Of a stretch of 64,000 nt of DNA, positions 28,393 through 32,857 are shown in pieces. Each line of letters starts with the position of its first letter. Position 1 is the first letter of the stretch. This DNA is from Candidatus Nanohalarchaeota archaeon (GTDB lineage: Archaea; Nanohalarchaeota; Nanosalinia; Nanosalinales; Nanosalinaceae), in assembly GCA_022729235.1 (NCBI GenBank), contig JALDAJ010000001.1, positions 384,001 to 448,000 on the forward strand. Reading direction: 5' to 3'. The notes under the pieces are model-generated. The model was not told the origin of the DNA and ran no database searches. It worked only from the letters and a program-made list of their open reading frames with translations. Position numbers and translations under genes: made by a program.

Positions 28393-29349
28393 ATGGAGTT
28401 AAGAAAGGGAGCTGAGACTATAGTCGATCAATGCCTCGATATCTCTGAGAATGAAAAGGTCTTTCTGGTAAATGACGGTAACGATATGGAGCTTATCCGT
28501 GCGTTAAAAGATGTGCTTAATGAGTGGGTGAGAAACTATGAGTACTACGAGTATCCGGAACCACAGAACCATGGAACAGAGCCTCCGAAAAAAGTTGCGA
28601 AGGGTATGAGAGAATCAGATGTTTTTATCGCCCCGACGCAGAAATCGATATCACATACCAGGGCGCGTGTCAAGGCGTGTGAAAACGGTGCCAGAGGCGC
28701 CACGTTACCTGGGATAAACAAGGAAATATGGAACTCGTCTCTGAAGGCGGACTACCAGCGTGTTAAGGAGATATCAGAGAAGGTTTACGGGATTATGGAG
28801 GAGACTTCGGAGATAAGGGTCGTGACTGATTCGGGTACAGACCTCCGCTTCGATATGGATGCGGAGCATTTCCATACGGATACAGGTCTTATCCACGAAC
28901 CCGGGGAGTTCGGAAACCTTCCTGCCGGGGAAGCTGATGGAGGCGTTCTAAATGCGAGAGGCAAGCTAGTTATAGATCACATGCCGTTTGTGCCGGAGCG
29001 CAACTATGGCGGGGAACTGGTTATGGAGGGCTCAAGGATTGTTGACTGGAATAATTTGGGAGACGACTCTGAAATCGTCCAGGCGATTAAAAATGTAGAC
29101 GGTGTTAGAAACGTCGCCGAGTTCGGTTTCGGGACTAATCCTGATGCATCCATTATAGGCAACATTTTGCAGGATGAGAAGGTTCTCGGTACAGTTCACG
29201 TAGCTATAGGCGATAACACGTCTTACTTCCCTGAAGAGCACGAAAAAAGAGTTTCAAGCGATATTCACTGGGATACTTTGTGCATAGAACCTACGGTATA
29301 CTTCGACGACCGGAAGATGCTCGACAAGGGAGAACCCACGTTCCTATAA
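28393..29349 (+). CDS. Thermophilic metallo-aminopeptidase (M29-like)
   Basis: GNLPAGE, AEFGFGTNP, DEKVLGTVHVAIG, IHWD. Confidence 0.9.
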   Translation: MELRKGAETIVDQCLDISENEKVFLVNDGNDMELIRALKDVLNEWVRNYEYYEYPEPQNHGTEPPKKVAKGMRESDVFIAPTQKSISHTRARVKACENGARGATLPGINKEIWNSSLKADYQRVKEISEKVYGIMEETSEIRVVTDSGTDLRFDMDAEHFHTDTGLIHEPGEFGNLPAGEADGGVLNARGKLVIDHMPFVPERNYGGELVMEGSRIVDWNNLGDDSEIVQAIKNVDGVRNVAEFGFGTNPDASIIGNILQDEKVLGTVHVAIGDNTSYFPEEHEKRVSSDIHWDTLCIEPTVYFDDRKMLDKGEPTFL

Positions 29350-29435
29350 ATCAGCTTCAGAGGATTTTATCCGGATTTTAGGTTATGAAAATAGAGATAA
29401 TAAGATTTATAAACGAAGCTAAGCCCATTAAATCT

Positions 29436-29666
29436 ATGTCAAAAGACGAATCAAGCTCTGAATCTGGAGCAAAGCCTCCATTATTCCACAATAGAAACCA
29501 GGGAGTTACTCTCTGGGCTGAAACCGACAAAAATGGTAATACTTTCTTAAGAGTAAATCTACCCCTGAATTTAGGCAGTATTCCTGTGTTTGTTAACGAC
29601 TCGGGATACAAGGCTCTTAGGGATGAATTCAACGATTTCACGGAGAACCTTGAGCTGGAGAGCTGA
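29436..29666 (+). CDS. Small hypothetical protein
   Basis: MSKDESS... start with TTTATAAA about 25 nt upstream; acidic. Confidence 0.6.
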   Translation: MSKDESSSESGAKPPLFHNRNQGVTLWAETDKNGNTFLRVNLPLNLGSIPVFVNDSGYKALRDEFNDFTENLELES

Positions 29667-29774
29667 AGTACAGGTAGGACTACTTGTAAATGAGCGCCCG
29701 GTGACGGTGTGTTAAAGCGTCTTCTTGGGCGTTCAACAGTAAGTTTTTATAACAGTTGTATCTTAACTCTGGTT

Positions 29775-29939
29775 TGATGGCAGCCCTTTCATGTTCACAG
29801 CTAACAACCTTTGAGTCCGTGAAGGTAGAGGCAGGGTTGCCGAAGTTTCTGCTGAATATTATTGGGACCAAGTTTAAGCTGTAGATAGGTCCCGGAGCCG
29901 CTTCACCTACAACCTGTTTTTACAGGTGTTCTCTGCATC
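29775..29939 (+). promoter_or_regulatory. Structured 5' leader (riboswitch candidate) of the DUF5794-like gene
   Basis: TATA at ~29744-29752; helices GGCAGCCCU/AGGGUUGCC, ACCUUU/GAAGGU, GGGACC/GGUCCC, ACCUG/CAGGU; complementary loops ACAGCU/AGCUGU. Confidence 0.55.
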
Positions 29940-30740
29940 ATGGTTCTGGATGATTTAACTGACGGCGCTTCACGGCATTTATACGATTTCTACGATGAAG
30001 GAACGCGCAAACTGGTCTTCATACTCTGTCTACCTATAATCGATGGAGTGTTCCCTGCCTTACTTGTTACAGGTGCAGTAGCTACCTTTTCAGACATGGT
30101 AGCGGTAGCTCTAACAGTATTCGCGGGCGCAGGAGCGTTAGCGATAATCTACTCTTACGCGGAGAACATCAGGGAGGCGAAGAGGATGGTGTTAAAGGCG
30201 TCGATACCGCTCCTTCTTGGAGCTCTAGCCGTAGCTCTGATCGCTCCTGTGTACAGCGAGTTGTTCCATGTTGAACGGCTTAAGTACGCGGCAGGACTCG
30301 CACTGCTTGTTATAGCAGGCCATCTCGCAGGTATAGATCTCGCGGAAAAATTCTCGACGCCAGCGATAATACTTACGGGGATGGTTTTATCTGTCAGGAA
30401 TCCTGGTGTATTGACATTCAATCTTGGTTATGTTGCGCCGGCGTTGATAACTACTGTTACAGCTATAGCCGGTCTCTATGCTGCGTCCTACCTGACGAAC
30501 ATGGAGATGAATCTGTCTTATGTGAGGAGAGGTGCAGCTGTAGTTCTAGCGTTAATCGCGATATCTCTCTTCGGCTATGACCTGCCTTCAGAACTCAGTC
30601 TCGCGGTTTTCGCAGTCGCATTAGTTGCGGCTCTGGAGACTAGAAGCGTTTTACCTCGACTTCGAAGTTTCCTTTCTCCTTCAGTCTCTCCGCAAGTTTC
30701 ACGACTAGTCTCTCCCGGAAAGGACGGAAAGCTAGGCTGA
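29940..30740 (+). CDS. Multi-pass membrane protein (DUF5794-like)
   Basis: LPIIDGVFPALLVTGA N-terminal motif resembles a haloarchaeal membrane family (from recall); about 8 hydrophobic segments. Confidence 0.65.
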   Translation: MVLDDLTDGASRHLYDFYDEGTRKLVFILCLPIIDGVFPALLVTGAVATFSDMVAVALTVFAGAGALAIIYSYAENIREAKRMVLKASIPLLLGALAVALIAPVYSELFHVERLKYAAGLALLVIAGHLAGIDLAEKFSTPAIILTGMVLSVRNPGVLTFNLGYVAPALITTVTAIAGLYAASYLTNMEMNLSYVRRGAAVVLALIAISLFGYDLPSELSLAVFAVALVAALETRSVLPRLRSFLSPSVSPQVSRLVSPGKDGKLG

Positions 30741-31026
30741 CCCCGATCAGGTCAGTTACAATACCGGGGCTGATAAGCATAAGCCCTGCGGCTAGAAGTA
30801 TGGTGGTCTCCAGGAAGTTACGTGATACTTCTCTCAGGGTTACAGAGGAGCCCAGTTTACTCAGTACGAACCTTATCTCCCGTCGAGCTATCTCTGCGCC
30901 TATAACGCCAGTTACAAGTATGAGGGCGACTGTCCGCCAGAAGCCGATGGCGGAGGATATCTCGATAAGAACCAGTATATCTATGAACGGTAGTGCTAGA
31001 AGCGCCAGGAGTAGGTAGCGGAGCAT
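30640..31026 (-). CDS. fxsA: FxsA family membrane protein
   Basis: LPFIDILVLIEISSAIG...AGLMLISPGIVTDLIG. Confidence 0.85.
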   Translation of the reverse strand: MLRYLLLALLALPFIDILVLIEISSAIGFWRTVALILVTGVIGAEIARREIRFVLSKLGSSVTLREVSRNFLETTILLAAGLMLISPGIVTDLIGVSLAFRPFRERLVVKLAERLKEKGNFEVEVKRF

Positions 31027-31078
31027 GTGAACTGATGTGTGTCTAGGATTTAAAGATTGAAGCTTCCCAGGTTTATAC

Positions 31079-32857
31079 ATGGGTTCAGTGCCGGAAAGGG
31101 AAGAGATAGAAGACAGGTACAAATGGAGTGTTGACGAAGTTTACAGCAGTAGAGAGGAGTGGGAGGAAGAAAAGGAAGAAGTAGAAGGTTTGCTCGAAGA
31201 GATCCAGGGCTTCAAGGGGGAGGTCATGGACTCAGGAGGTAACCTGTTCGAGGTTCTCCGGCTTTACGAAGAGGTGATGAGAAAAGTAAGCAAGCTCTCC
31301 CGCTACGCCAGCATGAAGAAGGATGAAGACACCCGGGTCCAGGAATACCAGGCGCTTTACTCCCGGACCAAATCTCTGTCTTCAAAGGCTGGCAGCGCAA
31401 CAAGTTTTATCGAGCCTGAGATACTTGAGGCAGGTAGGACGAGGATCAACGAACTGGCCAGTAAGAATAAGGACCTGGAGAAATATGATCACTACCTTGA
31501 CGAAGTTCTCCGGCTGGAGGAGCATACGCGCTCAAAGGAAGTTGAGGAAGTGCTTTCAGACCTCGGGGAAGTCCTGGGATCTGCAGGCGATATATACCAT
31601 GTCTTTTCAAATGCGGACCTCGAGTTCCCGGTCGTTGAGAAGCCGGATGGAGAGGAAGTCGAGATAACACAGAATAACCTGACGCGATTACTCAAGCACC
31701 GCGATAGAGACTTCCGGCGAGAGGTATATCACAAGCTATATGATCGGGTTTCCGAGTACAGGAACACACTAGGCTCGACGCTGGAGAATGCAGTAAAGTC
31801 GAACGTCAAGGTCGCAAGAATCCGGAACTACCAGACTGCAAGAGAGGCATCCCTGAAGAGCGACAATATCCCTGTAGAGGTCTACGACAACCTGGTCGGA
31901 ACAGTAAGGAATAATCTCGATGCTCTTCACCAGCACCTGGAGCTGAAGCAGAGACACCTTGATGTCGATAAAATCAGGATGTGGGATGTTTACATGCCCT
32001 TGACAGAGGACGACCCAGAGATACCGTATGAGGAGGCAAAGGAGTATGTTATCAAGGCTGTGAAACCTCTGGGAGAAGAGTACGTCAGCGCGATGAGAAA
32101 CGGGCTTGAGTCCGGGTGGGTTGATGTCTACGAGAACAGGGGTAAGCGTTCCGGCGCGTACTCTGGCGGGGCATACGACACGAAGCCCTACATCCTGATG
32201 AACTATCAGGACAACATCAGCTCGATGTATACCCTTGCGCACGAGCTTGGGCACTCGATGCATTCCTACTTTACAAATAAGAACCAGCCGTACATCTACA
32301 GCGGTTACCCTATCTTCCTGGCGGAGGTTGCGAGCACGGTTAACGAAAGCTTACTGACGCAATACCTACTTGAGAACGTTGATAATCGCCGGATTAAAAG
32401 AGCGGCGCTCAGCCATTCGCTGGAGAACTTCCGGTCCACTCTTTACCGGCAGACTATGTTCGCGGACTTCGAGCACCGGATTCACAGGAAGGTTGAGCAG
32501 GGTGAGGCACTCACTTCTGATGGTCTCGACGAGACTTACATGGAGCTCAAGTCAGAGTTTTACGAACCTGCGGAGATTGATGACAGGATAGCGAGGGAGT
32601 GGATGAGGATACCGCATTTCTACTACAACTACTACGTCTTCCAGTATTCCACAGGTGTCAGTGCGGCGACCACGCTCTCACAGCAGATAATTGAGAATTC
32701 ATCTTGTGATTACCTGGAGTTCCTGAAGAGTGGTTCAAGCAAGTATCCGCTGGATACTCTCCAGGATGCAGGTGTGGACATGAGTTCGCCGGAACCGATA
32801 GAGCAGGCGATTTCTGTCTACGCTGATCACCTTGAAAGAATGGAGAAACTCCTCTAG
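31079..32857 (+). CDS. pepF: Oligoendopeptidase F (M3B)
   Basis: GKRSGAYS, TLAHELGHSMH, AEVAST, WMRIPHFY. Confidence 0.95.
   Translation: MGSVPEREEIEDRYKWSVDEVYSSREEWEEEKEEVEGLLEEIQGFKGEVMDSGGNLFEVLRLYEEVMRKVSKLSRYASMKKDEDTRVQEYQALYSRTKSLSSKAGSATSFIEPEILEAGRTRINELASKNKDLEKYDHYLDEVLRLEEHTRSKEVEEVLSDLGEVLGSAGDIYHVFSNADLEFPVVEKPDGEEVEITQNNLTRLLKHRDRDFRREVYHKLYDRVSEYRNTLGSTLENAVKSNVKVARIRNYQTAREASLKSDNIPVEVYDNLVGTVRNNLDALHQHLELKQRHLDVDKIRMWDVYMPLTEDDPEIPYEEAKEYVIKAVKPLGEEYVSAMRNGLESGWVDVYENRGKRSGAYSGGAYDTKPYILMNYQDNISSMYTLAHELGHSMHSYFTNKNQPYIYSGYPIFLAEVASTVNESLLTQYLLENVDNRRIKRAALSHSLENFRSTLYRQTMFADFEHRIHRKVEQGEALTSDGLDETYMELKSEFYEPAEIDDRIAREWMRIPHFYYNYYVFQYSTGVSAATTLSQQIIENSSCDYLEFLKSGSSKYPLDTLQDAGVDMSSPEPIEQAISVYADHLERMEKLL

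Follow-up and report, generated by a model that had tools for sequence, protein, structure and literature searches.

A presumably leaderless small open reading frame and a candidate two-state RNA element precede the DUF5794 membrane-protein gene of nanohaloarchaea

Introduction

The leader of a DUF5794 membrane-protein gene in a Candidatus Nanohalarchaeota archaeon contains a conserved small open reading frame (sORF), presumably leaderless, and two alternative RNA helices. One helix encloses the stop codon of the sORF, and the other masks the start of DUF5794. The leader lies in a stretch of 64,000 nucleotides (nt), positions 384,001 to 448,000 of contig JALDAJ010000001.1, which we call the window; the genome that carries it is a single contig of 1.03 Mb. 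We assign a probability of about 0.6 to the reading that this leader, by means of a leaderless sORF and a two-state RNA, couples or attenuates the translation of DUF5794, and is not a ligand riboswitch.

The original prediction for this region was a pseudoknotted leader recalling the c-di-AMP (ydaO) riboswitch. Its observation and its interpretation are each borne out in part. A long, structured and conserved cis-regulatory leader with alternative pairings does stand before the DUF5794 gene. It was missed, on the other hand, that the leader is an open reading frame (ORF) from its predicted transcript start, and that the word CGGAGCC pairs with the region of the DUF5794 start codon. Little has been mapped of cis-acting control of translation in Archaea, and next to nothing is known of it in DPANN-type symbionts with genomes of 1 Mb.

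DUF5794 matches were obtained in 25 of 41 genomes in a first search of relatives, and in 47 of 70 genomes of the phylum in a wider search. Our comparison is built on 38 loci sharing the N-terminus of the window's DUF5794 (group A), made up of the 25 loci of the first set and those of 13 further genomes. These loci span more than 20 genera. Some RNA tests were run on 35 sequences or leaders, and a plain alignment of 25 sequences was made with MAFFT. The features of the locus are listed in Table 1.

Table 1. Features of the DUF5794 leader and gene, in window coordinates.
Feature	Position	Strand	Remarks
TATA box TTTATAA	29746–29752	+	predicted promoter of the sORF–DUF5794 transcript, from sequence
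sORF	29777–29884	+	35 codons and TAG; peptide MAALSCSQLTTFESVKVEAGLPKFLLNIIGTKFKL; presumed leaderless; positional equivalent in 38/38 loci
P1, long 5'-terminal hairpin inside the sORF	29778–29842	+	stem GGCAGCCCU 29779–29787 / AGGGUUGCC 29833–29841; starts at nt 2–3 of the predicted transcript
Lys-Phe-rich part of the sORF	29843–29875	+	AAGUUU at 29843–29848 and 29870–29875; codon use unlike the neighbouring gene
H2 hairpin	29862–29895	+	UUGGGACC 29862–29869 / GGUCCCGG 29888–29895; sORF stop TAG 29882–29884 in the loop
Anti-start strand	29891–29900	+	CCCGGAGCCG; family consensus CCRGRRCC; complementary to the DUF5794 start region; first bases are the end of the H2 3' arm
Hairpin with Shine-Dalgarno (SD)-like word	29912–29928	+	ACCUG/CAGGU; holds AGGUG (29924–29928), 11 nt before the ATG; U5 run 29917–29921
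DUF5794 membrane-protein gene	29940–30740	+	266 amino acids; Pfam PF19107, E 8.8e-20; ATG 29940

Results

A small ORF is conserved between the promoter and DUF5794

In all 38 loci, an ATG-started ORF of 29–41 codons lies between the TATA box and DUF5794. Its stop codon is separated from the DUF5794 ATG by 27–91 nt, with 27–56 nt in 35 loci and 74–91 nt in the other three. Over the first 25 loci, no stop occurs in the 899 codons of frame 0 (0/25 sequences with a stop). Frame +1 has 39 stops in 874 codons (21/25 sequences), and frame +2 has 62 stops in 874 codons (23/25 sequences). From an aptamer that is not translated, one would not expect so strict an open frame.

The TATA box and the DUF5794 ATG are both where the original prediction had placed them. 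The first T of the TATA box is 31 nt from the A of the sORF ATG. A regular expression finds a TATA-like box starting 27–36 nt 5' of the sORF ATG in 31 of the 38 loci; in locus L014 it matches only at −40, and six other loci carry A/T-rich boxes there that it missed. Across the window, 10 TATA-like matches precede the 61 long ORFs, five of them at −30 to −28. No TATA box was found in the spacers between the sORF and DUF5794. A TATA-to-ATG spacing of about 30 nt matches a leaderless mRNA in Archaea, so transcription is predicted to begin at the sORF ATG or a few nt off.

The frame of the sORF is kept far more strictly than its sequence, with a mild coding signal remaining. Orthologous peptides share 13–38% identity with that of the window, as compared with 48–66% for DUF5794. 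In 13 pairs of relatives, the ratio of synonymous to non-synonymous codon changes is 54:184 for the sORF and 1084:741 for DUF5794, and the changes at the three codon positions number 122:107:158 and 688:324:1518, respectively. This weak constraint on the peptide fits a leader ORF. Toward their C-termini, the peptides share in part the motif G-[AT]-K-[hydrophobic]-x-[WF]-[NK]. They match no Pfam or NCBIfam family. A profile search of the 35-residue family against 1.84 billion representatives returned seven proteins at E ≤ 0.001, four of which are small proteins of 34–61 amino acids. The other three, of 314–1238 amino acids, were matched in 5–12 separate stretches and were thus taken as repetitive sequence, not as relatives.

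The codon use of the sORFs differs from that of the DUF5794 genes: AAG counts 91/111 in the former and 91/185 in the latter, TTT 90/140 and 107/409, and AAT 71/101 and 53/133. We also notice a preference for ACC, and (CC)AAGUUU(A) words that are repeated across the 38 sORFs. The repeated AAGUUU words and the biased codons point to a constraint at the nucleotide level on top of a Lys-Phe-rich peptide. The unusual codon use hints that the speed of decoding plays a part, or that the RNA carries another signal. A check for arrest or stalling motifs recognised no known arrest motif; it found the richness in Lys and Phe and the partly conserved C-terminal motif.

These observations bear on another explanation, in which the product of the sORF is a functional micro-protein of 35 residues, acting either with DUF5794 as its partner or independently, and the helices only keep the two products in step. 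A selected peptide would account for the frame being open in every locus, for the C-terminal motif, in which W/F and hydrophobic replacements need different codons, and for the more frequent changes at third codon positions. A few database gene calls, the four small proteins above, point the same way, as does the ORF that also precedes halobacterial DUF5794 genes. The low peptide identity and the ratio of synonymous to non-synonymous changes, far below that of the neighbouring gene, argue against it, and the codon choice of the sORF appears constrained as nucleotides. Moreover, the peptide has no hydrophobic segment, which is usual in small membrane subunits, profile comparison reveals no similarity to the halobacterial ORF, and the placement of the stop codon in the H2 hairpin (see below) would be left unexplained. 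We consider a micro-protein of this kind unlikely. A prediction of the complex of DUF5794 with the sORF peptide, each given as an alignment, had a score of 0.00 and a mark of 0.32, which is evidence in neither direction.

A strand behind the sORF stop pairs with the DUF5794 start

The anti-start strand begins 2–10 nt past the first base of the sORF stop. In the window, its CCRGRRCC copy, CCGGAGCC (29892–29899), stands directly 3' of H2 and is complementary to AUGGUUCUGG (29940–29949), the first 10 nt of DUF5794, whose start codon is aligned across the orthologues. RNAalifold, applied to the plain 25-sequence alignment, predicts the anti-start helix as its sole helix. In these sequences, 89.1% of the cells of the helix are paired, versus 41.3% or less in slid controls. 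The three R positions each face an invariant U, forming A-U in 13–15 sequences, G-U in 8–11 and a non-pair in 1–2. The G-U pairs at the R positions argue that selection acts on the RNA of the plus strand.

Over the 38 loci, the free energy of the anti-start duplex is −8 kcal/mol or lower in 36 (mean −17.0, mean z-score −3.2), and p ≤ 0.05 is reached in 34; the window has −14.5 and p 0.033. Changes of the start region are accompanied by changes of the strand that masks it. Locus L057 has an altered start, UGACUCUGGAC, with a matching anti-start, UUCCAGAGUCC; L015 has GCAUGCUU with AGGCGUGC, and L021 has GGUUCCGG with CCGGAGCC. Likewise in L011, L032 and L034, the start region is changed and the anti-start is changed to match. 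A decoy pairing of the anti-start with a semi-conserved GUUUCUG word in the sORF was rejected, being at chance level (mean z −0.25, 2/35 below −2).

An SD-like word of 4–5 nt is found 10–17 nt (within 22 nt) before the DUF5794 ATG in 35 of the 38 loci, in the loop that the anti-start helix closes. The SD-like GAGGU/AGGUG would stay within that loop. The 3' end of the 16S ribosomal RNA of this genome reads ...GGATCACCTCC. Of the hairpin next to the start that the original prediction had drawn (ACCUG 29912–29916/CAGGU 29923–29927), the window has a strong version (−9.4, z −2.73); over 32 orthologues it is weak (mean −2.9, z −0.49), so that a robust SD-hiding hairpin is unsupported for the family.

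The window's U5 run, together with T-runs of at least four in 29 of the 38 spacers, might instead suggest attenuation at the level of transcription: the U-rich tract preceding the DUF5794 start would be an archaeal oligo-U terminator, with the majority of transcripts ending past the sORF and read-through under regulation. However, only 12 of the 38 spacers have T-runs of at least five, and the tract occupies the interval from the SD-like word to the ATG, which can be expected to be U-rich on other grounds. The complementarity of the anti-start and its compensatory changes would also be left unexplained, and we regard this possibility as very improbable.

The sORF stop codon lies in a covarying hairpin

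The core of H2, GGGACC (29864–29869)/GGUCCC (29888–29893), was among the helices of the original prediction and is confirmed by covariation, with both sides changed at four of its six pairs. For the whole helix of eight base pairs in 35 sequences, 81.1% of the cells are paired, versus 73.2% in shuffles (0/500 reach the observed value) and at most 57.5% in slid controls. Cells with a double change number 39, versus 13.3 in the shuffles. The hairpin encloses the stop codon of the sORF in 35 of 35 loci. The enclosure is thin in three second-family loci, with one pair in L010 and four pairs in L014 and L018.

The two helices compete for shared nucleotides

Four nt, C-C-R-G (29892–29895; alignment columns 90–93), belong both to the end of the H2 3' arm and to the beginning of the anti-start, so the two helices are mutually exclusive. 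The R column pairs within H2 (U-A 15, C-G 8, U-G 3, other 9) and with the invariant U of the start. Ensemble probabilities over 35 full leaders average 0.47 for the anti-start helix and 0.69 for H2, and the two are anticorrelated between loci. The corresponding values in the window are 0.60 and 0.32. The minimum-free-energy structure of the window shows H2 and the centroid structure shows the anti-start helix; when the 5' arm of H2 is removed, the anti-start helix becomes the minimum-free-energy structure, at −20.8 kcal/mol. The leader thus has the mutually exclusive helices hiding an initiation region that are a feature of riboswitch-type expression platforms. It also has two features of RNA-unfolding coupling: the DUF5794 initiation region is sequestered in conserved secondary structure, and the masking strand would be within reach of ribosomes that translate the sORF or terminate on it. 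The comparison shows the frame, both helices, their overlap and the place of the stop codon to be conserved.

Based on these features, we propose that the region is the first cistron of a two-cistron mRNA, whose conserved RNA structure would control initiation at the DUF5794 start, and that ribosomes on the sORF would decide between H2 and the anti-start helix. In the version we prefer, the anti-start of the free RNA would pair with the first DUF5794 codons and sequester the start. A terminating ribosome reaches roughly a dozen nt. With the anti-start 2–10 nt behind the stop, a ribosome at the sORF stop should cover or unwind the 3' arm of H2 and the anti-start, releasing the AUG for a second ribosome. 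H2 might then re-form locally and hold part of the anti-start. We favour such positive coupling. The opposite sign can be drawn from the same helices, as a ribosome on the 5' arm of H2 alone would free the anti-start to mask the AUG, leading to repression.

A bolder version, which we put forward only tentatively and think doubtful, is that the leader is the first conserved leader-ORF attenuator described in Archaea, in which the speed or pausing of ribosomes on the sORF would set the two-state RNA. Pausing on the Lys/Phe/Asn-rich sORF, where the U-ending codons UUU and AAU are favoured, could decide between H2 and the start mask. The synthesis of a membrane protein would thereby be tuned in a host-dependent nanohaloarchaeon, possibly by the supply of charged tRNA. 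Alternatively, within this version, the anti-start helix may juxtapose the sORF stop and the DUF5794 AUG, allowing reinitiation across a looped-out spacer of 27–56 nt. In this version, the leaderless ORF that ends 3–6 nt before the same gene in Halobacteria would be its counterpart by position.

The element precedes one group of DUF5794 genes

A covariance model of H2, the anti-start and the start has one site in this genome, at window positions 29843–29954, and matches in 44 of the 70 genomes of the phylum. According to the coordinate tables, 43 of the 49 matches listed are immediately 5' of a DUF5794 match and share its contig. The remaining ones comprise a strong match on another contig than the truncated DUF5794 match of that genome, one antisense to a true match, and four weak ones elsewhere. 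Among the matches that could be checked, the element is single-copy and gene-specific.

A second, paralogous DUF5794 group of four loci (L026–L029), with 52% identity from residue 18 onwards, is devoid of sORF, H2 and anti-start. Its member in this genome lies outside the window (L026, G000:C1:951803-952456) and carries a TATA-like box about 28 nt 5' of its ATG. The genes of L027 and L028 adjoin the end of an upstream gene or overlap it.

Halobacterial DUF5794 genes are preceded by an ORF in 10 loci (L118–L127; 12 were returned and two partial ones left out). This ORF is leaderless-looking and of 63–75 codons, and it ends 3–6 nt before the DUF5794 ATG, in frame with it. Its own ATG is about 210–230 nt upstream of the gene and about 25–30 nt after a TTTA-type box, and is preceded in the 10 loci by a conserved TCTCACGCAA-like word. 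Near the end of the ORF is a covarying hairpin, GGCC-ACGGGnnA-GGCC. Comparison with the nanohaloarchaeal sORF gave no profile similarity (hhalign probability 0.1%), and the database copies are 10 unnamed or 'hypothetical' proteins with no Pfam match. As long open frames are less telling in GC-rich genomes, we treat the halobacterial ORF as a lead. A readthrough fusion of the upstream ORF with DUF5794 is formally possible in Halobacteria, where the frames agree. In the nanohaloarchaea we rejected it, because the spacer lengths make the two frames differ from locus to locus.

A 5' hairpin of variable sequence is conserved

The first 75 nt of the leader fold into a long 5' hairpin in 25 of 25 first-set leaders (mean z −1.62, 18/25 below −1). 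Over the 38 loci, the 5' 28 nt pair with nt 35–78 at a mean free energy of −20.5 kcal/mol (mean z −2.55), with p ≤ 0.05 in 32 loci and p ≤ 0.01 in 17. The 5' arm begins at nt 1–9 and often takes in the AUG. The arm sequences differ widely between genera, the loop size and the position vary as well, and only one column (A54) of the 25-sequence alignment is invariant in this region. Between close relatives, 21 single changes keep the pair and 41 break it. The hairpin called P1 in the original prediction stands, without a conserved aptamer core.

All helices of that prediction are present in the window and appear in its minimum-energy fold, but several are not shared by the orthologues. The outer extension of its second arm, GAAGU 29842–29846/GCUUC 29900–29904 and UUCUG 29847–29851/CGGAG 29893–29897, has a mean z of +0.33 (0/35 below −2). 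The proposed kissing loop, ACAGCU 29797–29802 with AGCUGU 29877–29882, has a mean z of +0.25 (1/35 below −2), and the words likened to ydaO are not conserved. An Rfam scan of the whole window gave no match at the gathering score. At relaxed E-values (up to 10), positions 29600–30050 gave a single unrelated snoRNA-like match (18 bits versus 103), outside the leader. The orthologous leaders do covary, as would be expected of a real element; however, the covariation supports another architecture, made of the sORF, the stop-codon hairpin and the start-sequestering helix. With no Rfam match, the kissing contact not conserved and the region an open frame, the assignment to a c-di-AMP ligand riboswitch is not supported.

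More generally, the leader could be an RNA that senses a ligand, an ion or temperature, with P1 as sensor, H2 versus the anti-start helix as platform, and the open frame secondary. The conserved long 5' hairpin, the two-state platform that sequesters the start codon, and the membrane protein without assigned function downstream are all compatible with this idea. It is hard to reconcile with the lack of any Rfam family, the c-di-AMP class included, with the variable P1, which has hardly any invariant base, and with the kissing contact that is not conserved. The chance-level pairing of the anti-start with the GUUUCUG word and the frame-specific avoidance of stops, unexpected for an untranslated aptamer, also speak against it. 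We judge a sensing RNA to be improbable.

Points that weigh against two-state coupling

Several observations count against our reading of the leader as a leaderless sORF with a coupling or attenuating two-state RNA. From the window sequence alone, the case for structure is weak: the fold of the 171-nt leader (−50.3 kcal/mol, z −0.88) is equalled by 43 of 200 dinucleotide shuffles, and that of a 203-nt leader (z −1.00) by 30 of 200. These single-sequence values would suit chance helices without function in a long intergenic spacer, but the frame, the helices and their positions are conserved over 38 loci of more than 20 genera. Comparison already contradicts that explanation, which we find hardly credible. 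Pair-level covariation within P1 is weak, since the double changes between close relatives, scored on minimum-free-energy pairs, keep the pair in 12 cases and break it in 10. The folding energies apply to standard conditions at 37 °C, not to a hypersaline cytoplasm, and the probability of the anti-start helix is below 0.1 in seven of the 35 leaders. Three loci have no SD-like word, and the sign of the control is not derivable from sequence.

Two further points concern the peptide, which may matter in itself. The third-position excess in the sORF is mild, and both the W/F interchange near the C-terminus and the hydrophobic residue after G-[AT]-K are maintained through different codons.

Finally, L023, L058 and L060, which belong to one genus, have the sORF but lack the pairing of the anti-start with the start, the start region having diverged. 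These are the loci with spacers of 74–91 nt. At the aligned DUF5794 start they have ATA, ATG and CTG, which could mean that initiation uses a near-cognate codon, that the start has moved or that the gene is decaying. In these loci we notice an anti-start-like word that pairs with the end of the sORF (CCUGGAAG/CUUCCGGG) rather than with the start. The spacer of L060 retains a relic, GUUCUGGAA.

Comparison with known systems

The closest parallels to the proposed coupling are the RNA-unfolding systems of E. coli rpmI-rplT and of the coat-lysis/replicase genes of phage MS2. They share with the leader studied here a downstream start hidden by base pairing, a masking strand within reach of ribosomes at the end of the upstream ORF, and a spacer of tens of nt in which a second ribosome can load. 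The spacing reported for rpmI-rplT is +52 nt (PMC12548453), compared with 27–56 nt in 35 of our loci. The differences are considerable. The upstream ORF here appears leaderless, has 29–41 codons and encodes a weakly conserved peptide, whereas in those systems it is a ribosomal-protein or coat gene. The mask lies just past the stop codon and not within the upstream coding region, and it has a competitor in H2, whose loop holds the stop codon. The host is an archaeon, and the element is known from sequence alone.

In the leader-peptide systems ermC and cat, and in the arrest-peptide systems SecM-secA and MifM-yidC2, a short leader ORF goes with alternative hairpins, of which one hides the next initiation region, and the position of the ribosome decides the fold. 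The DUF5794 leader resembles them in its short upstream ORF and alternative hairpins. Those systems hide a Shine-Dalgarno sequence. In contrast, the start codon and codons 2–4 are masked here, the sORF is presumably leaderless, and its C-terminal motif is only partly conserved.

Termination-reinitiation pairs of haloarchaea and bacteria also consist of two co-directional cistrons on one transcript. In Haloferax volcanii, reinitiation is down 60% at 13 nt and abolished at 22 nt (PMC10666635). The halobacterial DUF5794 loci, with a stop 3–6 nt before the ATG in 10 loci, are within this range. The nanohaloarchaeal distances, 27–56 nt in 35 loci and 74–91 nt in three, are outside the limit of about 20 nt. 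Plain reinitiation across these spacers is unlikely unless the anti-start helix joins the stop and the start.

The c-di-AMP (ydaO/kimA) riboswitch, which we take to be Rfam RF00379, likewise provides a long structured leader before a membrane-protein gene. The present leader differs in having no covariance-model match at the thresholds tried and in being an ORF, and the orthologues do not share the similar words. Ribosome profiling of H. volcanii has revealed small ORFs in 5' untranslated regions that run into the next gene or end within a few nt of it and are reminiscent of upstream ORFs or leader peptides (PMC10117724). As far as the available text of that study goes, they are described without a mechanism or an RNA structure.

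The literature searched, on DUF5794, leaderless genes of Nanohaloarchaeota and archaeal upstream ORFs, does not describe this element. We take it to be a real, conserved, single-copy regulatory leader, and a candidate new archaeal variant of translational coupling or attenuation. It offers a concrete and mutable model, in which a presumably leaderless upstream ORF ends with its stop codon in a covarying hairpin adjacent to a start-masking sequence. It may serve as a test case for combining leaderless and SD-led initiation on one archaeal mRNA, and for the role of the orphan DUF5794 family. It may equally test whether coupling by RNA unfolding exists in Archaea, in which stops and starts more than about 20 nt apart do not support termination-reinitiation (PMC10666635).

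The DUF5794 protein and neighbouring features

The AlphaFold model of the DUF5794 protein is all-helical, with a predicted local distance difference test (pLDDT) score of 83.8. Foldseek found no match to it in the PDB at E ≤ 0.001. A wide VIA-align search returned generic helical bundles only, the best with a Z of 11.4 (a 99-residue designed protein) and the next with 7.0. There was no usable match in the ESM Atlas and no match in NCBIfam, and the literature searched does not mention DUF5794.

The window's DUF5794 ORF has 266 codons, versus 221–241 in its orthologues. Its last 101 nt (30640–30740) overlap the 3' end of a convergent gene of the FxsA family (30640–31122, minus strand). The extra C-terminus has low model confidence (pLDDT 57–58), so its true stop, or the overlap, deserves a look.

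Between the aminopeptidase-like gene upstream and the sORF promoter, the window has an extra ORF of 93 codons (29385–29666) with no Pfam or NCBIfam match. The snoRNA-like Rfam match, sno_ncR4 (C/D-box type), lies within this ORF at 29613–29668; at 18 bits against a gathering score of 103 and E 0.32, it is most likely due to chance. The M29-like aminopeptidase gene of the window (28393–29349) misses the Pfam cut-off (E 1.1e-4); genes of this type end directly before the sORF promoter in many relatives.

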